A DNA stretch of 64,000 nucleotides from an uncultured Clostridium sp. (lineage in GTDB: Bacteria; Bacillota_I; Bacilli_A; RF39; UBA660), in the NCBI GenBank assembly GCA_964578175.1, contig CAZOBH010000001.1, positions 3,198 to 67,197 of the forward strand. Direction: 5' to 3'. The notes under the pieces are model-generated. The model did not search any database, had not been told where the DNA came from, and worked only from the letters and a program-made list of their open reading frames with translations. Position 1 is the stretch's first letter; each line of letters starts with the position of its first letter. The translations under genes were made by a program, and so were the position numbers. Of the stretch, positions 2,978 through 13,282 are shown piece after piece.

Positions 2978-3940
2978 TTATTCTTTTGGAGTGTTGTTTG
3001 CGTTATTTACATTATCTTGGATAGCTCCACCAAACATATCTCCCATTTTCATACCCATTACTGAAGCACCAACATTACTTGGATTATTAGCAAGATCTTT
3101 CATAGCTTGAGCTTCACTTAATTTAGTATAAACATCAGCTTCTTCACTTGTAGCGGAAGTTGCTTTCATCTTAATATCTGTTCTTTCTCTCATTGATTTC
3201 TTAACTTCTTCTGGAACATCAATTGAAGCAACAGTTAGTTTAGTAATTTCTACTCCTAAACTATCAGTTTGTTTTGATACATTTTTAATTACATCTTTAC
3301 CAATCTTATCTTGTTCTTTAGCCATTTCATCGAATGAAAGTCCAAGATTTGCAATTTCTGTTGCAATACTAGATTGTACGAATGGAGTTAATGAATTATA
3401 TAACTCACCAACAGTAAATACTTCTTGATCTCCTGTTACATTAGTTAATAAATTAACTGGATTATTAACTTTAACTACATATTCTCCATTAGCACTAATT
3501 TCAATTGGTCCCCATGTTGGATCATTATAAAGTACTGGTTTTTCAGTTCTAAATGTTAACCCAATCTTTTCAGTCAATGAAATAAAGTAAATAGCTTGTT
3601 GATTAATTACTTCTCCTTTATATGCAATACGTTTCATTGCTTCAACTATTTGTGAACCAATTCCTTCAAAAATATTTGTTTGGAATAATGTAGGTGCTGA
3701 AGTATCCATAAAATACATTCCAGGTTCAGTAATGATATCTTTAATTGCTCCATTATCTACTAAGATTGCACATTGTCCTGGTGAAACATAAAGTCTTGAT
3801 TTATCTTGGATTACTCCATTTTCAGTAGTTACTTTAACTAATAAAGTATCCTTATCTAAACTATCACACTTAATAACCTCTTTAAATTGATCGCTGTATT
3901 GTCCACTTACAGCAGTTTGAATTGATTTAATAAATCCCAT
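2978..3940 (-). CDS. SPFH (stomatin/prohibitin/flotillin-like) domain protein, COG4260 / YdjI-like, without the C-terminal zinc ribbon
   Basis: The 320-aa ORF has a strong AGGAGG RBS. The N-terminal region (LYVSPGQCAILVDNGAIKDIITEPGMYF) and overall layout resemble B. subtilis YdjI-type SPFH proteins. This rests on recalled similarity, not a search. Confidence 0.6.
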   Translation of the reverse strand: MGFIKSIQTAVSGQYSDQFKEVIKCDSLDKDTLLVKVTTENGVIQDKSRLYVSPGQCAILVDNGAIKDIITEPGMYFMDTSAPTLFQTNIFEGIGSQIVEAMKRIAYKGEVINQQAIYFISLTEKIGLTFRTEKPVLYNDPTWGPIEISANGEYVVKVNNPVNLLTNVTGDQEVFTVGELYNSLTPFVQSSIATEIANLGLSFDEMAKEQDKIGKDVIKNVSKQTDSLGVEITKLTVASIDVPEEVKKSMRERTDIKMKATSATSEEADVYTKLSEAQAMKDLANNPSNVGASVMGMKMGDMFGGAIQDNVNNANNTPKE

Positions 3941-3949
3941 ATTTTCCTC

Positions 3950-5152
3950 CTATTTATTACTTAAATAATCTTCTATAAGATCATAAGTTTCTTTTTTTAG
4001 ACCACTAGTAACACTAGTTATCTCTTTAGGTATACCATTTATACCAACTTTTGTTACATCGTATTTACCACCAGTTGTTCCTACTCTAAATCCATAATTC
4101 TTCCAAGCTATATTTTGTAATTTTTCATTATCATATGCTTTTAAGTATTCATTTCCTCCTTCAGAGAAAGTTGCAATACAATGTGAATTCCATATTGTTG
4201 GTCTTGGATATAAAATAACTATCTCATCTGCTAATTCTTTATATGCATCACTATATTTGTTATTAAACTCAATTAATGACTTTTCATAGTCAACAATCAT
4301 AGGTTTAGCTCCTTGTCCAGTTTTTAAATATAGTTCAAATAAGTCAGCAGGAGTATTGTTCATATATCCTGATTTCTTATAGAATTCCTTTAATTTAGGT
4401 AATGTTTTTTCTATATTAGCATCACTAAGATCTCCATTTGTCATTACAGATAATAATAATCCATAATATGTAAGTCCTGGAGAAGAACTTGCTGGATCTG
4501 TAGAATAAATATTTATTTTTCCATAAATACTATTTAATCCAATATCAGACCATGTTTTTCCTTCTAATATATAATTTAGTAGTTTATTCATATCGTCTAT
4601 ATAATAAACTCCATTTTCGTTAGTTACTATTTTTTCTTTAATTAATGCATTAGCAACATCTTTCCAACTATAAATTACAATTGGAGTATTAAGAGTTAAT
4701 GACCCATCTAATACTTGATATCTAGCTGCTTCACCGTCTTTTGGTTGTAATTTATAATAGTTGTAATATCTTTCATCTGATGTAAATAAAGCATCATATT
4801 TAGTACAACTAGGACTATTAATGTTTATTGAAGAATCCACTTGATAATGTTGTTCAAATGTTTCTCTTACTAATGGTAATTGAATTGTTTTACCATTACT
4901 CCAAGAATCATATACAACATTTAATTTATATTCATCTTCCATAATCTTAACTATTTCAGGATCAGCAATAAAATCTTCTTTTCCTCCACCCGTTGCTATA
5001 TAAATTGTTTTAAGATTTTTATTACCACCATTAAATGCAGTTTTAATAACTATTGCAAGAATTATTACAACAAGTACTATTGCAACACCAATAATCTTTT
5101 CAACTTTTCCTTCTTTTATTTTACTTAATGGATTGTTATTACTATTGTCCAT
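3950..5152 (-). CDS. Membrane-anchored extracytoplasmic solute-binding-like protein
   Basis: The track ORF is 3950..5161 (GTG start); the ATG at 5152 has better spacing from AGGTG. There is one N-terminal TM helix (IIGVAIVLVVIILAIVI). The ectodomain resembles the N-terminal half of the neighbouring 534-aa protein. Confidence 0.55.
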   Translation of the reverse strand: MDNSNNNPLSKIKEGKVEKIIGVAIVLVVIILAIVIKTAFNGGNKNLKTIYIATGGGKEDFIADPEIVKIMEDEYKLNVVYDSWSNGKTIQLPLVRETFEQHYQVDSSININSPSCTKYDALFTSDERYYNYYKLQPKDGEAARYQVLDGSLTLNTPIVIYSWKDVANALIKEKIVTNENGVYYIDDMNKLLNYILEGKTWSDIGLNSIYGKINIYSTDPASSSPGLTYYGLLLSVMTNGDLSDANIEKTLPKLKEFYKKSGYMNNTPADLFELYLKTGQGAKPMIVDYEKSLIEFNNKYSDAYKELADEIVILYPRPTIWNSHCIATFSEGGNEYLKAYDNEKLQNIAWKNYGFRVGTTGGKYDVTKVGINGIPKEITSVTSGLKKETYDLIEDYLSNK

Positions 5153-5747
5153 CTTCATCACCTACTTCTATATTATCTTTTTCAAATCCTAAATTCTTTT
5201 CAAATATCTTTATTTCATTATCTATATCAATCATCTTAGCTTCTTGCATGTTCTTAAGTTGTTTATCAAATCCACTAGATATTGCTTCGATGAATTTAGG
5301 AGCTTCTTTAATATATTTATTATCATTAGCATTTTGTTCTTTTTTATCTTGTACCATTTTATATTTATAAAGTATTTTATATGTTGCATCAAAGTAATAA
5401 TCGAAGAAATCAAAAGCCTGTTCTACTTTTTTAGGTCGTTGTCTTAATGCTACTAATATTGCGTCAGTCTTCTCTGTAATGTTTTTTATATGTTTATCAA
5501 TTTCTTCATTATTGATTGCTGTTGATAAATTTTGAATTTTAGATGCCATAAAATAATAATTATTTACATCATTTTCATTAAACTGTCTAATATCTTTTTC
5601 TTTAAATAAAAGTATTCCACCAAGTCCTATTAATATTGTTAAAACTAAAGATAATATCAAATGAATATTAAATATTAAATAGAAAATTATAAATGATACT
5701 GAAGCAAGTATAGCAGAATACAAATATCTTCTTTGAATTTGTCTCAT
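5142..5747 (-). CDS. XpaC-like membrane protein (5-bromo-4-chloroindolyl phosphate hydrolysis family, PF10112-like)
   Basis: It has two N-terminal TM helices followed by a helical cytoplasmic domain containing the FDFFDYYFDATYKILYKY motif. The start overlaps the upstream stop (TAATG). Family assignment is from memory of the architecture. Confidence 0.45.
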   Translation of the reverse strand: MRQIQRRYLYSAILASVSFIIFYLIFNIHLILSLVLTILIGLGGILLFKEKDIRQFNENDVNNYYFMASKIQNLSTAINNEEIDKHIKNITEKTDAILVALRQRPKKVEQAFDFFDYYFDATYKILYKYKMVQDKKEQNANDNKYIKEAPKFIEAISSGFDKQLKNMQEAKMIDIDNEIKIFEKNLGFEKDNIEVGDEDGQ

Positions 5748-7351
5748 TAACTATAACTCCTTACTTCTTTAAATGCTTTCTTTAATCCTGATTTACCATC
5801 AAATATCTTACCATTTGTTAAGCTAGTTATTTCACTTAATTGTCTTTCACTTGCCTCACCAAACGTAATTGCGTATACTGGGATATTTTTTGCTTTCTCA
5901 CTAGATCTAAGATAATCAGTTATCTCATATAAACCACCATTATTTGATTCTCCATCAGTCATTAATATTACTGTTTTTGTATAACTATCATCAGTTTTAT
6001 CAAGTATTTTTAGTGCTTCAGCAGTAGGTGAATAAATATTGGTACCACCTTCAGCATATAATCTATAGTTCAGATAATCAATTAAATTTTGCGTATTATT
6101 ACCTTTATAATTAATAGTTATATCTCTTGTATACGCATCAAATGTAATAACAGTAATAATATCTTTTGATGAAAATTGAACTCTAGCTTTACTAGCTTCT
6201 TCTTTTGTTAAAATATAATTCATTGCGTCTTTAAGATCATTCATTCCCTCTCCTGCCATAGATCCAGATTTATCTAGACAAAATACAAAATGTCCTGGTC
6301 TTCTAAACTCTTCTATGTATAAATCAAAAGCTTTTTCCATAACTTTCTTAGATGGGAATTTTTGAGCAACTAAATATTCATTAGTATTAATTCCCCAACT
6401 ACTTTTAAACACAGAACTATCCGCATTTTTATTAACTCCACCATACCAAGTTCTAAATCCTTTTGATTCAAGTTTTTTCATAGTATCACTACTTCTTAAA
6501 AACTTTTGTATTAACTCGAACTTATCTTCTTTCTTTTGATCATTTTCAACATAAGCAAATGGCATATCATTTAGTGCAACACCATCTTTTGGATATATCA
6601 AATATAATGGTTCTTTATTATTTTTTTCAAGTGATTTATTAATATTAATTAATGTTGATTCAAATGATATTACTGCTTCATAATCACCATTAACAAACAT
6701 ATCTTCTAGATATCCTTCATCTCCTGATGTTCTAGTAACTCCACTAAAGAATGCTTTCATATTTGATTTTAAAGTTTGACTATCAAGCATATCTTCTGTT
6801 AATACTTCAGGAGAACCTGCTATTGAATTTAAAAATGCTAAATAACCAGTAGCTCCAGTGTTTGTTGAAAGTGGAGAAGTCATAACATATTTTAAATTAC
6901 CTGATTTTATAGCATTTAAAATATCTTTATTATATACATTCTTACCTACAAAATTTAATTTTTCTGCTTTAGATTTTCTAATACCTATAACTACTGGATC
7001 TATTGCTATTGATTTAGAATTTTCAACTAGGTATGGATTATCCAACATATATGTCCACATAGAATTAGACATCCATACTGCATCATAATTACTACTATCA
7101 TCATTCAATGTCTCTACTATTTCCATATCATCCATATATTCAATGTTTAAATATATATTTTGTTCTTCAGCAAACTTTTCTAATTCTTCTTTATAAGGAG
7201 ATGTAGAACTAGCCGCTAATAAATTAAATGTTCTAGATCCATTAAATAATTCACCTATAGAACTTCCTGCAAATCTAATTAGTACATAAAGTACTATAAT
7301 AACAACAATTACGATACCAATAACTTTTGAACCACTTTTTTTTCTTTCCAT
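5747..7351 (-). CDS. Membrane-anchored substrate-binding + von Willebrand factor A (vWA) domain protein
   Basis: It has an N-terminal TM helix and a solute-binding-like ectodomain. The C-terminal vWA domain (nt ~5762-6292) carries MIDAS residues DKSGS (DxSxS), GGT and MTDGE. Confidence 0.75.
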   Translation of the reverse strand: MERKKSGSKVIGIVIVVIIVLYVLIRFAGSSIGELFNGSRTFNLLAASSTSPYKEELEKFAEEQNIYLNIEYMDDMEIVETLNDDSSNYDAVWMSNSMWTYMLDNPYLVENSKSIAIDPVVIGIRKSKAEKLNFVGKNVYNKDILNAIKSGNLKYVMTSPLSTNTGATGYLAFLNSIAGSPEVLTEDMLDSQTLKSNMKAFFSGVTRTSGDEGYLEDMFVNGDYEAVISFESTLININKSLEKNNKEPLYLIYPKDGVALNDMPFAYVENDQKKEDKFELIQKFLRSSDTMKKLESKGFRTWYGGVNKNADSSVFKSSWGINTNEYLVAQKFPSKKVMEKAFDLYIEEFRRPGHFVFCLDKSGSMAGEGMNDLKDAMNYILTKEEASKARVQFSSKDIITVITFDAYTRDITINYKGNNTQNLIDYLNYRLYAEGGTNIYSPTAEALKILDKTDDSYTKTVILMTDGESNNGGLYEITDYLRSSEKAKNIPVYAITFGEASERQLSEITSLTNGKIFDGKSGLKKAFKEVRSYS

Positions 7352-7413
7352 CTTATCTTCACCATTTTAAATATATCATATTTATACAAAAAAAAATATA
7401 AAAAAAGAAAAGA

Positions 7414-8085
7414 TTATTTTGAAGATAAACGATCTATTTCTTTATCTATAAATTCGCATGTTTTATCTATATCTTCAGCTATCTTTTCTATATCAAATAA
7501 ATCTGATTCATAATATTCAGCATTATCAATTACATTATTAGTATAATTTATAGTGCCTTCATTTCCAAATAAACCAGTTAAATCAAGTTCATCTATATTA
7601 AAATCAAAATTATTATACTCTATTTTTTCAATAGGTAATGATATTAAATTATACTTTTCAATTAAAGGAAGATCCATAGAATGAATATTTTTCCATTTAA
7701 ATTTAGAAAATTCCTCTTTGTTTTCAGTATAATAAATAGAACCATCTTTCTTTATAAATGCATGATTACCATTTACTTTAGTTATATATTTTGGATAAAC
7801 ATAATTTCTCCAATAAGTATCAGTTATTAAATGAGTTAAATATCCTAGATACATCGGATTATTCATTTTATCTTTATATTTTTCATAAAAAGCATCATAA
7901 TCTTCATTCTTTTTACCAAAAGATGAATTATAAAAATGACTTAAATTTCTATTCTCTCCACCAAAAACTTTTGCATTCCTCCAGCAATCAGGAGCAATAT
8001 TACCTAAAGTAAATAGCACATCATCTAATTTATATTTTTTATTTAAGTTTTTAGCAACTGATTCATGTATTGTAAATGGTGGCAT
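7414..8085 (-). CDS. Hypothetical protein, possibly zinc-dependent phospholipase C-like / metal-dependent hydrolase family
   Basis: The 223-aa ORF has an AAGGAG RBS. The N-terminal H...LGNIAPD motif is reminiscent of the Zn_dep_PLPC family. This is a weak assignment. Confidence 0.35.
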   Translation of the reverse strand: MPPFTIHESVAKNLNKKYKLDDVLFTLGNIAPDCWRNAKVFGGENRNLSHFYNSSFGKKNEDYDAFYEKYKDKMNNPMYLGYLTHLITDTYWRNYVYPKYITKVNGNHAFIKKDGSIYYTENKEEFSKFKWKNIHSMDLPLIEKYNLISLPIEKIEYNNFDFNIDELDLTGLFGNEGTINYTNNVIDNAEYYESDLFDIEKIAEDIDKTCEFIDKEIDRLSSK

Positions 8086-8132
8086 ATTATCACTCCTTTA
8101 TAAAATTATATCATAAAAAGGTTAACAATAAG

Positions 8133-8390
8133 TTAACCTTTAAAATTACCAGCTACGCTTTCAATCTCTTGTAATTCAAATCTATATTCTTGTTTAACAT
8201 TAGGATATTTTTCATGATCAACAGTAGATAAGAACATATCTTTTGGTCTAACCCATAAACCACCATCTCCATATAATCTTCTATAAACTACCATATCTTC
8301 TTTAGTTTCAGAGTCTTTAGCAATTCCTTCAACTAAATAATAATCTCCTTTAAAATGTTTATAAATACCATTTATTTTTAATTCACGCAT
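8133..8390 (-). CDS. DUF1653 domain protein
   Basis: YKHFKGDYYLVEGIAKDSETKEDMVVYRRLYGDGGLWVRPKDMFL matches the characteristic DUF1653 core. Confidence 0.75.
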   Translation of the reverse strand: MRELKINGIYKHFKGDYYLVEGIAKDSETKEDMVVYRRLYGDGGLWVRPKDMFLSTVDHEKYPNVKQEYRFELQEIESVAGNFKG

Positions 8391-8399
8391 AATTTCCTC

Positions 8400-10667
8400 C
8401 TATAACAATTTTAAATCAATTAATACATCTTTAACAGTATCTACAGGTATTATTTCTAATTTATTTTTTACTTCTTCAGGTACATCTTTTAAATCATCAA
8501 TATTATCTCTAGGTATAAATACTTTTTTTATTCCTGCTCTTTCGGCCGCCATCAATTTTTCTGGTAATCCACCTATTGGCATAACATTACCACGTAAACT
8601 GACTTCTCCTGTCATTGCGACTTTTTCACTTACTTTTTTCTTAGTCACAAGGGAAGCTAATGTAGTTGTTAAAGTTATTCCTGCAGATGGACCATCCTTT
8701 GGTGTAGCACCTTCTGGTACATGAACATGTAAGTCATTAGATTTAAATAGTTTTGCTTTATCAGGATATAATTCCTTAACAAGACTTATAGCAATTTGAA
8801 CGCTTTCTTTCATTACATCACCAAGTTGTCCTGTAATAATAGTTTTACCACTACCTTTTGTGAATACTGATTCAATAAATAATATTTCACCACCAGCACT
8901 AGTCCATGCGAGACCTGTAACAATTCCTGATTTCTTATTTTTAATTACTCTATCATGTCTTATTTCTTTACTATCTATGTAATCTTTAATATTATTCTTA
9001 GTAACTACTATTTTACTTTCTTCATTTGAAACTATCTTAACAGCTACTTCTCTTGCTAAATGACTAAGAATTCTTTTTAGACTTCTTACACCAGATTCCA
9101 TTGTATAAGAAACTATTATTTTCTCTAATGCTGAATCAGTAATACTTAATTTATTTTTACTCAAACCAGTTTTATCCAATATCTCAGGTATTAGATATTT
9201 CTTCGCTATATTCTCTTTTTCAAGTGGAGAATAACCATTAAACTCTATTACTTCCATTCTATTTAATAAAGCTTCAGGAATTTTATCAACAGAATTAGCA
9301 GTACAAATAAAGAATACATCAGATAGATCATATGGAACATTTAAATAATGATCTGTAAAAGTATTATTTTGTTCTGGATCTAAAACTTCTAAAAGTGCAC
9401 TAGCTGGATCACCATCGTATGAAGTAATTAATTTATCAACCTCATCTAATACAACAACAGGATTAGATTTACCACATTTACATATTCCATCCATTATTCT
9501 TCCTGGTAATGCACCAATATAAGTTCTTCTGTGGCCTCTAATTTCTGCTTCATCTCTTATTCCCCCAAGAGATACTCTAACATATTCTCTATCTAATGCT
9601 TTTGCAATAGATGATGCAATAGAAGTTTTACCAGTTCCTGGTGGACCAACAAATAAAAGAATACTACCGGATTGTTTCTTATTTAGATTCATAACAGCTA
9701 TTTCTTCAATTATTCTTTTCTTAACTTTTTTAAGTCCATAATGTTCTTCATCTAATACTTTCTTTGCTTTCTTTAAATCTATTTCATTATATTGTTCCTT
9801 TTTCCATGATAAAGACGTAATAAAGTCTATATAATCATAAAGCATTCCATATTCTTGTGAGTTATTACCCTCGTTTTTCATTCTGTTAATTACTTTTTCT
9901 GCTTCTTTCAAAGCCACTTTATTCATACCAGACGATTTTATTTTTTGTTCAAATTTACTTATATCATTTTGTTCATCCGGATGCATATTATCTAATTCTT
10001 TTTGTAAATATTCTATTTGCTTTTTTAAAGCATGTTCTCTATATATTCTTTCGTTATCTTCTTGTTCTTTATCTTTTGCTTCTCCATTTACTTCTTCAAT
10101 ATTTATATATTCATAGATTATCTTTTCTATTTTTTTATTTCTCTTCTTATTTGAATCTTCTTTAAGTAATTCATACTTTTCTTTAGGATTTAGATTTATT
10201 AAATCGTTAAGTGCACATATCATTTCACTAAGACTATTCCATTGCATGATAAAGGCACGAGCAACAAATCCCCATTCATATTTTTGGACAAATTTATTTA
10301 ACTTTCTTTTTAATTTATCTAATTTATCTTGTTCTTCCTCAAAAGTAATATCATTAATAGTAGCTATAGCTGAGAACTTAACTTCATAATTATTTTCTCC
10401 AAGAGATACTATATCATCTATTTTTATTCTTTCATCAGTTTCAATAATAGTTAGATCATTTCTAATATCAATTACTTTACCTATTACTCCTATATCTTGA
10501 AAAGATTGTTTGTTAAAATCGTTAAAGATTCTTTTCTTTCTTATTAAAAATATTACTTTATCATCTATTTCTAAATTCTTACCATCCATACTTCTTGCTT
10601 TACTGCCTTTTAAAGCAAGTTCTATTTTGGGTAGAATTATTTGATCATATAATAAAACTATTTTCAT
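8400..10667 (-). CDS. lon: ATP-dependent Lon protease (LonA type)
   Basis: Walker A GPPGTGKTS, a AAA+ module, and the proteolytic serine motif PKDGPSAGITL. Confidence 0.95.
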   Translation of the reverse strand: MKIVLLYDQIILPKIELALKGSKARSMDGKNLEIDDKVIFLIRKKRIFNDFNKQSFQDIGVIGKVIDIRNDLTIIETDERIKIDDIVSLGENNYEVKFSAIATINDITFEEEQDKLDKLKRKLNKFVQKYEWGFVARAFIMQWNSLSEMICALNDLINLNPKEKYELLKEDSNKKRNKKIEKIIYEYINIEEVNGEAKDKEQEDNERIYREHALKKQIEYLQKELDNMHPDEQNDISKFEQKIKSSGMNKVALKEAEKVINRMKNEGNNSQEYGMLYDYIDFITSLSWKKEQYNEIDLKKAKKVLDEEHYGLKKVKKRIIEEIAVMNLNKKQSGSILLFVGPPGTGKTSIASSIAKALDREYVRVSLGGIRDEAEIRGHRRTYIGALPGRIMDGICKCGKSNPVVVLDEVDKLITSYDGDPASALLEVLDPEQNNTFTDHYLNVPYDLSDVFFICTANSVDKIPEALLNRMEVIEFNGYSPLEKENIAKKYLIPEILDKTGLSKNKLSITDSALEKIIVSYTMESGVRSLKRILSHLAREVAVKIVSNEESKIVVTKNNIKDYIDSKEIRHDRVIKNKKSGIVTGLAWTSAGGEILFIESVFTKGSGKTIITGQLGDVMKESVQIAISLVKELYPDKAKLFKSNDLHVHVPEGATPKDGPSAGITLTTTLASLVTKKKVSEKVAMTGEVSLRGNVMPIGGLPEKLMAAERAGIKKVFIPRDNIDDLKDVPEEVKNKLEIIPVDTVKDVLIDLKLL

Positions 10668-10679
10668 ATGTCACCTCTT

Positions 10680-10706
10680 TTAGCAATCTAATATTTTGAG
10701 TGCTAA
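10680..10706 (-). promoter_or_regulatory. CIRCE operator (HrcA binding site) in the lon leader
   Basis: TTAGCAATC-N9-GAGTGCTAA compared with the consensus TTAGCACTC-N9-GAGTGCTAA (one mismatch). It lies 13 nt upstream of the lon ATG and just downstream of the -10 element. Confidence 0.8.
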
Positions 10707-10710
10707 CTAG

Positions 10711-10739
10711 ATTATATTATATTAAATTTAAAATGACAA
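10711..10739 (-). promoter_or_regulatory. SigA-type promoter of lon
   Basis: On the minus strand, TTGTCA (10739-10734), a 17-nt spacer, then TATAAT (10716-10711). Confidence 0.7.
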
Positions 10740-10780
10740 TAGTAATAATAAAAAAAAGAAGTATATTAAATACTTCTTAA

Positions 10781-13282
10781 TTAGTCATTTTTTCCGTGGC
10801 ATTGTTTGTATTTCTTACCACTTCCGCACCAACAAGGATCATTTCTACCTAATTTCTTTTCTTTTTTAACAGGTTTTTGTTTTTCTTTTGCTTCTTCACC
10901 CTTGTTAGAGAATTTATTTTTACTTATTTCTTTTCTTTCAAGATTTTGTGTTATTTGAGCTTTTACTAAGAAATTAGTAACATCTTTATCAATATTTTGG
11001 AACATCTTATCAAATAATTCAAATCCCTCAACTGTATAAGCTCTTAATGGATTTTCTTGACCATAACTTCTTAAACTTATACCTTCTCTTAAGTGAGACA
11101 TTGTATTAATTTGTTCTGTCCAATATTTATCAATAATGTTTAAAGTAATAACTTTTTCAAATTCTTCAGCTATACCAACTGGTACAACACTAATCTTTTC
11201 TTGATATTCTTCAACTATTTGATCATAAATCTTATCAATTAATTGTTCTTCTTTTAAACCATCAACTTCATCAACAGATATATCATTCTTTAATAAAGTA
11301 TTGAAGTATTCAACTATATCAGTAATATCATCATGAGTTAATTTTCCTTCTGGATATATATGAGATTGAACTTCATCAGTAATATGATCTTTAAATGTTT
11401 TTAATACAGTATCATGAATAGATTCATTATCTAATATCTCATTTCTTCTTTCATACATAATCTTTCTTTGATTATTGTTAACATCATCATATTGTAATAA
11501 TTGTTTACGAATATCAAAGTTATTTCCTTCAACTCTAGATTGAGCTGATTCAATTGATTTAGTAAATGTTCTAGACTTAATTGCTTGAGTTTCTGAGAAC
11601 CCAACAGATTGTAACATTCTCTTAATTCTATCTGTACCAAATCTAACCATTAGATCATCTTCCATTGATACATAGAATTGTGTATAACCTGGATCTCCTT
11701 GACGTCCTGAACGTCCACGTAATTGGTTATCTATACGACGAGATTCATGTCTTTCAGTACCTAGTACGCATAAACCTCCAAGTTTTCTAGTTTCATCAGT
11801 TAATTTAATATCTGTTCCACGCCCAGCCATGTTAGTAGCAATTGTAACAGAACCTTTTTCTCCAGCTTTAGCAATGATTTCTGCCTCACGAGCATGGTTC
11901 TTAGCATTTAATACTTCATGCGGAATCTTTTTCTTAGTTAACATCTTACTAATTAATTCGTTTGTTTCGATAGCTACAGTACCAACAAGTACTGGTTGTC
12001 CAGTTTTATGTCGTCTTTCTATCTCATCAACAAGAGCAATGAATTTACCTTGTTTTGTTGAATATAACAAATCTGGTTCATCATCACGAATTACTTCTTT
12101 ATTTGTAGGTATTTGAATAACATACATGTTATATATATTTCTAAATTCTTCTTCTTCTGTTTTAGCTGTTCCTGTCATTCCAGAAAGTTTTTGATACATT
12201 CTGAATAAGTTTTGGAATGTAATAGTAGCTAAAGTCTTAGTTTCTTGATTAATTGTAACTCCTTCTTTAGCTTCAATAGCTTGATGAAGACCATCACTAT
12301 AAGCACGTCCTTTCATAAGACGTCCAGTAAATTTATCAACGATTACAATCTTATCATCTTGTACTACATAATCTACATCTAACTTCATACTATAATTTGC
12401 TTTTAAAGCTTGATTAATACTATGAACTAATGTAGTTTGATCTGTCTCATACAAATTTGAAACTTTAAAATACTTTTCTGCTTTTTTAACACCTTGTTCT
12501 GTTAAAACAACAGTTTTTGTTTTTTCATCATATTTATAATCATCTTCATTAGTTAATTCTTTAGCAAATTTATCAGCACTAGTATATACTGTAGTACTTT
12601 TTAATTCTCCACCAGAAATAATAAGTGGTGTTCTAGCTTCATCTATTAATACTGAGTCAACTTCGTCAACAATACAGAAATTTAATTTTCTTTGTACACG
12701 ATCTTCTTTTTTAACAACCATGTTGTCTCTTAAGTAATCAAATCCTAATTCATTATTAGTTGTGTACATAATATCACAATTATATACTTCCTTCTTTTGT
12801 TCTGGAGTTAAATCTCTTAAGTTAACACCTACTGTAAGTCCTAAAAATTTATGAATATTTCCCATCCAATTAGCATCACGTTGTGCAAGGTATTCATTAA
12901 CAGTAATAATATGTACTCCCTTACCACTTAATGCATTTAAGTATGCTGGAAGCACAGCAGTTAAAGTTTTACCTTCACCTGTTTTCATCTCAGCAATATT
13001 ACCTTGGTGAATTGCTATTGCTCCTAATAATTGTACATAGAATGGTTTTTCTCCAATAACACGAAAAGCTGCCTCTCTTGCAGTTGCAAAAGCTTCAACT
13101 AATATATCATCTAAAGTTTCTCCATCTTCAACTCTTTTTTTAAATTCTTCAGTTTTAGCTTTTAAATCATCATCAGACATCTTACTATATTCTTTATCTA
13201 ATGCTTCAATTTTATCAGCTAATACAGAGAATTTCTTTAATTCTTTATAATCATGATCAAATAATGATTTAATTATGTTCAT
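10781..13282 (-). CDS. secA: Preprotein translocase ATPase SecA
   Basis: Full-length match to the SecA pattern (MKTGEGKTL Walker A, DEVDSVLIDEARTPLIISG) with the C-terminal zinc-binding tail CWCGSGKKYKQCHG. Confidence 0.97.
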   Translation of the reverse strand: MNIIKSLFDHDYKELKKFSVLADKIEALDKEYSKMSDDDLKAKTEEFKKRVEDGETLDDILVEAFATAREAAFRVIGEKPFYVQLLGAIAIHQGNIAEMKTGEGKTLTAVLPAYLNALSGKGVHIITVNEYLAQRDANWMGNIHKFLGLTVGVNLRDLTPEQKKEVYNCDIMYTTNNELGFDYLRDNMVVKKEDRVQRKLNFCIVDEVDSVLIDEARTPLIISGGELKSTTVYTSADKFAKELTNEDDYKYDEKTKTVVLTEQGVKKAEKYFKVSNLYETDQTTLVHSINQALKANYSMKLDVDYVVQDDKIVIVDKFTGRLMKGRAYSDGLHQAIEAKEGVTINQETKTLATITFQNLFRMYQKLSGMTGTAKTEEEEFRNIYNMYVIQIPTNKEVIRDDEPDLLYSTKQGKFIALVDEIERRHKTGQPVLVGTVAIETNELISKMLTKKKIPHEVLNAKNHAREAEIIAKAGEKGSVTIATNMAGRGTDIKLTDETRKLGGLCVLGTERHESRRIDNQLRGRSGRQGDPGYTQFYVSMEDDLMVRFGTDRIKRMLQSVGFSETQAIKSRTFTKSIESAQSRVEGNNFDIRKQLLQYDDVNNNQRKIMYERRNEILDNESIHDTVLKTFKDHITDEVQSHIYPEGKLTHDDITDIVEYFNTLLKNDISVDEVDGLKEEQLIDKIYDQIVEEYQEKISVVPVGIAEEFEKVITLNIIDKYWTEQINTMSHLREGISLRSYGQENPLRAYTVEGFELFDKMFQNIDKDVTNFLVKAQITQNLERKEISKNKFSNKGEEAKEKQKPVKKEKKLGRNDPCWCGSGKKYKQCHGKND

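Follow-up and report, generated by a model that had tools for sequence, protein, structure and literature searches.

Organization of the locus

The window, that is the whole stretch of 64,000 nucleotides (nt) analysed here from an uncultured Clostridium sp. (contig CAZOBH010000001.1), has a G+C content of about 26% and stems from an assembly of 1.14 Mb in 46 contigs with an estimated completeness of 93%. Four minus-strand open reading frames (ORFs), termed g1 to g4 in the order of their transcription, fill positions 2978-7351 and encode a membrane-anchored binding-protein domain fused to a von Willebrand factor A (vWA) domain (g1, 5747-7351, 534 aa), an XpaC-like membrane protein (g2, 5142-5747, 201 aa), a second anchored protein with a solute-binding-protein (SBP) fold (g3, 3950-5152, 400 aa, or 3950-5161, 403 aa, with alternative starts at 5158 and 5161) and an SPFH protein of the YdjI type (g4, 2978-3940, 320 aa). 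On sequence comparison, this locus is a rarer variant of a common, unstudied operon, SBP-vWA/XpaC/SBP/TelA(+AAA), in which an SPFH gene occupies the slot of TelA.

The four genes are closely coupled, with a TAATG overlap between g1 and g2 at 5747 preceded by AAGGAG, as read from the sequence, an overlap of 11-20 nt between g2 (stop codon TAG at 5142-5144) and g3 (possible starts 5152, 5158 and 5161) behind AGGTGA, and a gap of 9 nt between g3 and g4 (3941-3949), where TAGGAGG spans the g3 stop. Among the candidate starts of g3, the ATG at 5152 has the best Shine-Dalgarno (SD) spacing. A T-rich spacer of 62 nt upstream of g1 holds the extended -10 element TGaTATATT (7370-7378, minus strand), at a distance of 18 nt from the g1 start codon. 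Of 85 related loci, 38 have the motif TGnTAnnnT 10-80 nt ahead of g1, compared to 11.5 expected from shuffled sequences (maximum 19). Because the upstream genes vary among the loci, the cassette possesses its own promoter. At the other end, 5 nt past the g4 stop codon, lies a candidate intrinsic terminator on the minus strand (2942-2972), a 9-bp AU-rich hairpin, AAAGAGAUU-UUA-AAUCUCUUU at 2952-2972, followed by the U-tract UUAUUUUUAU. With a folding energy of -10.1 kcal/mol (z = -2.26 versus shuffles) this modest hairpin is plausible as a terminator, as an earlier note on this DNA had held for 2945-2971, while its attribute 'strong' was overstated for a stem with two G-C pairs; a consensus terminator scan, which needs three G-C pairs, called no terminator for the same reason.

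Coupled junctions with SD sequences, an own extended -10 element, a terminator and a gene order that recurs in more than 90 loci together argue that g1-g4 form one autonomous transcription unit, and the recurrence of this order between unrelated flanks argues that the arrangement is not a product of chance. The overlapping or near-abutting boundaries at 5747, 5142-5161 and 3941-3949, from which the earlier note had already derived a single operon, were thus borne out by the sequence.

Four proteins with distinct predicted positions at the membrane

The g1 product starts with MERKKSGSK, followed by a transmembrane (TM) anchor of predicted N-in orientation (residues 10-28, hydropathy), an SBP_bac_11-type domain (residues 46-300, nt 6452-7216; E 8e-12, 45.8 bits versus a Pfam cut-off of 25) and a vWA domain (residues 356-517, nt 5801-6286; PF00092, E 1e-15, 58.7 bits, above the cut-off). 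The residues D360, S362, S364, T437 and D466 of the metal ion-dependent adhesion site (MIDAS) of the vWA domain are invariant in 86 of 86 aligned loci. Homologues with the same architecture make up more than 2,100 clusters, a number which, like the wider count for g3, is a floor, since scoring covered only those 8,000 candidates that had most words in common with the query; where homologues of g1 and g3 are named, which is the case for a few, they carry the label 'Bacilli bacterium' metagenome-assembled genome (MAG).

The g3 product, a family of 676 representative clusters with a wider homologue count of more than 3,500 clusters, has no match in Pfam or NCBIfam, and a sequence search of solved structures gave nothing for it. 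Behind an N-in TM anchor (residues 20-38), the AlphaFold2 model (61 sequences; predicted local distance difference test, pLDDT, 90.4; predicted template modelling score, pTM, 0.86) shows a presumably extracytoplasmic type-II periplasmic-binding-protein fold, for which Foldseek retrieved sulfate-, Fe(III)- and molybdate-binding proteins (1sbp, 5um2, FutA and ModA) with a probability of 1.00, E values of about 1e-9, TM-scores of 0.5-0.67 and identities of 9-14%. Given the profile-profile match to the g1 family (hhalign probability 98%, E 1.3e-13, 285 columns) and the shared fold, g3 is a distant paralogue of the N-terminal domain of g1. This kinship is visible at the level of profile and fold alone, as BLASTP found no similarity between the two proteins. 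Genes for an ATP-binding cassette (ABC) permease or ATPase were found neither in this cassette nor in more than 90 related ones, a result that refers to the cassettes examined.

The g2 product matches PF10112 (Halogen_Hydrol; E 4e-13, 50.1 bits versus a cut-off of 29.8) over profile positions 4-190 of 191. Its AlphaFold2 model (51 sequences, pLDDT 86) consists of a TM hairpin (helices 2-26 and 30-48, with membrane segments at about 8-26 and 30-48), which is flanked by positive residues on its N- and C-terminal sides, and a four-helix domain spanning residues 58-185 (helices 58-78, 81-103, 105-133 and 140-185) that would be cytoplasmic in the topology we infer. A relationship of this domain to ESCRT-III, PspA or Snf7-like proteins is not supported, since a Foldseek search against the PDB returned nothing with E < 0.3 (Shrub, E 0.59, TM-score 0.24); a sequence search of the PDB found no solved structures for g2/XpaC and TelA.

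The g4 product matches Band_7_1 (PF13421; E 4e-28, 98.9 bits versus a cut-off of 24) and Band_7 (1.5e-13), and is soluble by the lack of any hydrophobic or TM segment. Its two cysteines (C25 and C57), none of them C-terminal, form no CxxC pair, so that a zinc ribbon is absent, and all 11 aligned members of its subfamily have one or two cysteines each; the C-terminal tail is rich in Gly and Met and has no SHOCT domain. The subfamily of 194 clusters is strongly conserved, and every member examined, down to 50% identity, sits in the four-gene cassette. Among solved structures, the sequence search of g4 found the PH stomatin only (5e-4).

These profile searches for VWA, SBP_bac_11, XpaC (PF10112) and SPFH, one of the checks proposed in the earlier note, together with the fold and profile-profile comparison of g3, agree with its reading of the products as a TM-anchored binding domain fused to a vWA domain with intact MIDAS, a two-TM protein resembling XpaC, a TM-anchored binding-protein-like paralogue and a COG4260/YdjI-type SPFH protein devoid of a zinc ribbon.

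The fourth gene is TelA in most relatives and SPFH in a few

The neighbourhoods of three g1 homologues had g1-g2-g3 as a constant part, followed either by a Band_7_1 gene or by TelA and an AAA/AAA_lid_6 ATPase. Broader sampling, in which an alignment of 12 g3 sequences was used to scan one genome per species and the ORFs of related loci were classified with hidden Markov models built for this analysis, gave 80 loci. MAGs from gut or rumen, 'Acholeplasma sp. CAG:878' and 'Clostridium sp. CAG:508' among them, are the source of every one, and we take the group to be RF39. The fourth gene was TelA in 71 and SPFH in six of these loci, with three cut by contig ends, and a CbbX/SpoVK-type AAA ATPase followed TelA in 57 of the 71. 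Within the family of the source genome, a sample of 201 genomes (200 genera) yielded the cassette in 17, five with SPFH, 11 with TelA and one truncated; among these genomes, which measure about 1 Mb, the cassette is thus an accessory unit of patchy occurrence. While the flanking genes differ from locus to locus, the gap between g3 and g4 measures 3-22 nt in 14 of 14 SPFH-type loci from at least five genera. The gene neighbourhood analysis suggested earlier thus found that the SPFH partner does recur with homologues of the g1 fusion.

In a sample of 300 genomes of the class, PF10112 was matched in 24, and in 16 regions around the best matches (14 genomes) the XpaC-like gene adjoins TelA and/or a related AAA ATPase, with the exception of a congener of the window, where it is paired with SPFH. 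Loci of another family (L099-L104) encode an XpaC-like protein of 300-345 aa and, after about 0.5 kb, an AAA ATPase of 620-665 aa; TelA follows the AAA gene in some of them only, and XpaC-AAA therefore also occurs without adjacent TelA.

Several loci deviate from the compact arrangement. A thymidine kinase gene (10417-11007) lies between g3 and TelA in L004 and about 1.2 kb (about 6256-7457) separate the two in L114, from which it follows that the g3/TelA junction tolerates insertion; such a junction may have been the way in for the SPFH gene. L034 and L058 have their AAA gene shifted away by 0.7-4 kb. Four loci (L012, L017, L040 and L070) are titled 'uncultured Muribaculaceae bacterium' (Bacteroidota) and one (L084) 'Actinomycetes bacterium'; these nest among Bacilli MAGs on the g3 tree, and the titles probably reflect mislabelled bins, not transfer.

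A single displacement of TelA by SPFH

The maximum-likelihood tree of g3 places the SPFH-type loci in one clade (Shimodaira-Hasegawa-like approximate likelihood ratio test, SH-aLRT, 98) nested among TelA-type loci, with one label change, which argues for a single displacement of TelA by SPFH with the TelA-type cassette as the ancestral state. The g2 tree likewise unites the SPFH-type loci in one clade (96), which together with three TelA-type loci belongs to a starred set (100) also holding two outgroups. The sister loci of the SPFH clade on the g3 tree (L050, L061 and L072) possess TelA and no AAA gene, which suggests that the ATPase was lost ahead of the replacement of TelA.

The two scaffold types also appear mutually exclusive at the level of genomes. 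TelA (PF05816), PspA (PspA_IM30) and TerD have no match in the whole 1.14-Mb source assembly, in line with the earlier note, which had found TelA and PspA lacking here. Three of four other SPFH-type genomes have no TelA match and the fourth a sub-threshold one (23.6 bits), while TelA is in the cassette in 10 of 10 TelA-type genomes tested, none of which contains a g4-type SPFH protein of about 320 aa, although they share other Band_7_1 and stomatin paralogues. One TelA-type genome encodes a second, divergent TelA paralogue (G437:C26:3194-4141, 97 bits) outside the cassette.

The source genome has a second Band_7_1 protein (L006 1339-3392, G000:C10) of 402 aa, which has a segment rich in Gly and Met and ends in a SHOCT-like C-terminus, and whose gene directly precedes one for a YdjG-like zinc-ribbon protein with multiple CxxC motifs, a YdjI/YdjG-type pair in a genome without PspA. 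This second Band_7_1 protein and g4 share the conserved N-terminus MGFI..(x)..G.(Y/F).D(Q/E)(F/W)K, and their identity of 22% over the whole length rules out that g4 arose by recent local duplication.

The XpaC-like protein diverged along with the swap

The genes common to both cassette types were not equally affected by the exchange. Mean identities between SPFH- and TelA-type loci versus those within types are 49% versus 54% for g1, 61% versus 66-72% for g3 and as low as 23% versus 44-51% for g2. The between/within ratio amounts to 0.89-0.91 for the three ectodomains, 0.60 for the N-terminal tail and TM helix of g3 and 0.24-0.65 for the regions of g2. Within types, the anchor of g3 is conserved at 46-54% and that of g1 at about 19%. 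The SPFH-type g2 proteins keep the core motif FFDYYL..T.KI and have lost the motif RYDEIENQ.L.S.E.KKF of the TelA type; they are 44% identical among each other, and in the TelA-type sister clade g2 still shares 45% of its residues with g2 of other TelA-type loci.

These values fit an orthologous g2 that underwent accelerated evolution in the SPFH lineage. The import of a foreign XpaC is disfavoured, as the starred set of the g2 tree places SPFH-type g2 with three TelA-type loci, which agrees with the sister group seen for g3, although the join to the outgroups may be a long-branch artefact. Since g2 diverged strongly with the swap while g1 and g3 barely changed, the XpaC-like protein would be an adaptor in contact with the scaffold on the cytoplasmic side; the anchor of g3 might be part of the same membrane-embedded interface and g1 might be merely tethered.

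Neighbouring genes

The genes flanking the cassette in the window have housekeeping functions, among them gltX, lon and secA. Directly downstream of the cassette, a minus-strand ORF of 608 aa (870-2907) without a Pfam or NCBIfam match overlaps an ORF of 73 aa. Upstream of g1, the minus strand of 7414-8390 encodes a protein of 223 aa with a weak match to zinc-dependent phospholipase C (31.7 bits) and no obvious signal peptide as well as a DUF1653 protein; a DUF1653 gene is also found in L002 and L003, there about 7 kb downstream of the cassette.

Discussion

A candidate envelope-sensing complex with an exchanged cytoplasmic scaffold

The locus is, on balance, best explained as encoding a four-protein complex of the cytoplasmic membrane which organises or protects the membrane upon an extracellular cue, a reading that we regard as fairly probable. 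Type-II-anchored and facing outward, g1 with its binding fold and MIDAS vWA domain and g3 with its paralogous binding fold would, given that neither an ABC permease nor an ATPase is found alongside, most likely serve as ligand or surface sensors and have no part in transport. The TM hairpin and four-helix domain of g2 would couple these ectodomain proteins, probably via the conserved N-terminal tail and TM helix of g3, to a peripheral scaffold on the cytoplasmic side of the membrane. In most relatives this scaffold would be TelA, usually with the CbbX/SpoVK-type AAA ATPase, while in the source lineage the YdjI-type SPFH protein g4 took the place of TelA once; from the nearest TelA-type sister loci the AAA gene was already gone. 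That the output concerns the membrane is suggested by analogy with xpaC-telA and YdjI/SamI. The combination of an SPFH protein with vWA and binding modules, which the earlier note had put forward as an uncharacterised membrane-associated complex, is supported by this analysis, but does not stand by itself, as it is a derived variant of the much commoner TelA(+AAA) operon.

Several observations weigh against this interpretation. The promoter looks housekeeping-type and constitutive, with no sign of an extracytoplasmic function (ECF)-type stress promoter, and the topology, including the extracytoplasmic position of both g1 domains, is predicted only from hydropathy and the positive-inside rule. 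The swap is one evolutionary event, a single observation and not a repeated one, and in the 16 PF10112 regions from 14 of the 300 class genomes an XpaC-SPFH pairing was present in the congener of the window only. The joining of outgroups on the g2 tree is flagged as a possible long-branch artefact. Furthermore, g2 could have diverged because constraint was relaxed once TelA had been lost, and not by adaptation to SPFH, although the identity of 44% within the SPFH clade and the kept core motif run counter to this. The physical contacts, topology and physiological role ascribed to the complex are what we infer from sequence, predicted structure and analogy.

Alternative explanations

The same components could be arranged into a surface adhesion device, in which the MIDAS vWA domain binds a ligand on the host, in mucus or on a partner cell, the binding folds act as stalk or co-receptor, and XpaC and SPFH cluster or anchor the adhesin. 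An invariant MIDAS predicted outside the cell, the gut or rumen origin of all close relatives, the seemingly constitutive promoter and the patchy, accessory distribution (17 of 201 genomes of the same family) would all suit an adhesin, which we nevertheless consider unlikely, as most loci have TelA for a partner, a protein known for phenotypes in the tolerance of envelope antibiotics, and as the ectodomains are nearly unchanged while cytoplasmic parts co-vary with the output protein, which suggests trans-membrane coupling and not mere anchoring. Slightly less likely still is that g1 and g3 are orphan binding proteins for solute uptake or chemosensing, which pass an oxyanion or a metal to a transporter encoded elsewhere, with XpaC and SPFH in assembly or quality control. 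The sulfate-, Fe(III)- and molybdate-binding proteins as best structural matches of g3, the SBP_bac_11 match of g1 and the name 'toxic anion resistance' of TelA fit such an anion theme; on the other hand, a permease or ATPase is encoded in none of the more than 90 cassettes examined, the structural matches of g3 reach TM-scores of just 0.5-0.67 at 9-14% identity, and the fusion of a binding fold to a vWA domain is unusual for transport.

The SPFH gene might also be a fortuitous neighbour, an unrelated gene that landed after g3 once TelA was lost and is co-transcribed with the cassette without belonging to the complex. A swap seen only once, the lack of a further XpaC-SPFH pairing in the 300 class genomes sampled and the presence in the genome of a further YdjI-like SPFH protein, which has a zinc-ribbon partner of its own, speak for this improbable case, yet the tight g3-g4 junction (3-22 nt in 14 of 14 SPFH-type loci from at least five genera), a highly conserved g4 subfamily found in the cassette alone and the change of g2 and the g3 anchor along with the swap are difficult to reconcile with it. 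A connection between Ter operons and resistance to phages has been described, and a vWA domain of the TerY type next to membrane proteins could indicate a Ter-like or anti-phage defence function, in resistance to phages or colicins, which we hold to be very improbable. The PADLOC search of the cassette for defence systems gave nothing beyond a match of the g1 vWA domain to TerY (3e-5, 21.7 bits) over 50 residues, so that the comparison with TerY in the earlier note amounts to a generic vWA resemblance; the domain is predicted to be extracellular and, in contrast to TerY, is fused to a binding fold. TerD is absent from the genome, and the flanks with gltX, lon and secA are housekeeping genes and not a defence island. 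The co-variation, the absence of transporter genes, a g4 subfamily specific to the cassette and the missing signatures of defence all fit a sensing complex at the membrane better than they fit these four alternatives.

Implications

TelA, which was discovered as a 'tellurite resistance' gene, has to our knowledge been assigned no function. The replacement of TelA by SPFH with selective remodelling of XpaC raises the possibility, which we put forward tentatively and with less confidence than the complex itself, that TelA and YdjI-type SPFH proteins are functionally interchangeable outputs of one trans-membrane receptor. If so, TelA would act as a scaffold beneath the membrane which, in the manner of SPFH proteins, organises lipid domains or repairs them. 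XpaC would be the adaptor to which either scaffold docks and which determines specificity, and the conserved N-terminal tail and TM helix of g3 would be the element that carries the extracellular signal to XpaC. The SPFH clade would then represent a natural 'domain-swap experiment', in which the changed XpaC residues map the scaffold-binding surface. By extension, XpaC-TelA might in many bacteria form the cytoplasmic part of a receptor whose ectodomains are of the binding-protein and vWA kinds, while for YdjI-type SPFH proteins the cassette adds a context independent of PspA. Such questions gain weight because XpaC-TelA helps Listeria and Enterococcus to tolerate nisin, daptomycin and further agents that act on the envelope.

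Comparison with known systems

Both xpaC-yaaN and pspA-ydjGHI belong to the sigma-W regulon of Bacillus subtilis (PMC3498285). Listeria lmo1966-67 is induced by a bacteriocin, and a TelA mutant is nisin-sensitive (PMC12791056, which cites Collins 2010). Deletion of xpaC in Enterococcus faecium lowers the minimum inhibitory concentration of daptomycin and redistributes phospholipid microdomains, only with telA intact (PMC6811118). YdjI/SamI is a cytosolic SPFH protein, which is recruited by the membrane proteins YdjG/H, localises PspA in the B. subtilis pspA-ydjGHI system and affects membrane fluidity, while its loss unbalances the membrane partner (PMC8581546, PMC13713150). Ravi et al., in their survey of the phage shock protein (PSP) system, connect PspA with Band-7 proteins and AAA ATPases and leave TelA, XpaC and vWA unmentioned. 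A description of an XpaC-SPFH pairing was not found in the literature, with the Ter survey of Anantharaman et al. 2012 lying outside that search; a 2026 preprint that combines TelA with vWA concerns an unrelated LXG toxin which is also named TelA.

With TerY of the ter clusters, the cassette shares a MIDAS vWA domain that in relatives is associated with the 'tellurite resistance' protein TelA, but the vWA domain of g1 is predicted to lie outside the membrane behind an N-in TM anchor, is fused to a binding fold and comes without TerD. The likeness to pspA-ydjGHI (samGHI) lies in g4, a soluble Band_7_1 protein encoded together with small membrane proteins that could recruit it; the differences are a source genome without PspA, the lack of a zinc ribbon/SHOCT tail in g4 and partners which are XpaC and binding-protein/vWA proteins and not YdjG and YdjH. 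A further known system is xpaC-telA of B. subtilis, Listeria (lmo1966-lmo1967) and E. faecium, where the PF10112 protein has the same plan of hairpin and helical domain as g2 and whose TelA follows directly after g3 in the cassette of the sister lineages. Unlike these systems, the source genome lacks TelA and has SPFH in its slot, two ectodomain proteins with binding-protein and vWA domains are added, and g2 is just about 23% identical to the TelA-type XpaC of its own relatives. The five-gene SBP-vWA/XpaC/SBP/TelA/AAA operon of small-genome Bacilli from gut and rumen is the direct ancestral state by the g3 tree; its g1-g3 are orthologous to those of the present locus and agree with them in order and overlaps. 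The present locus differs from it in that one SPFH gene stands for TelA and AAA, and in the remodelling of g2 and the g3 anchor.

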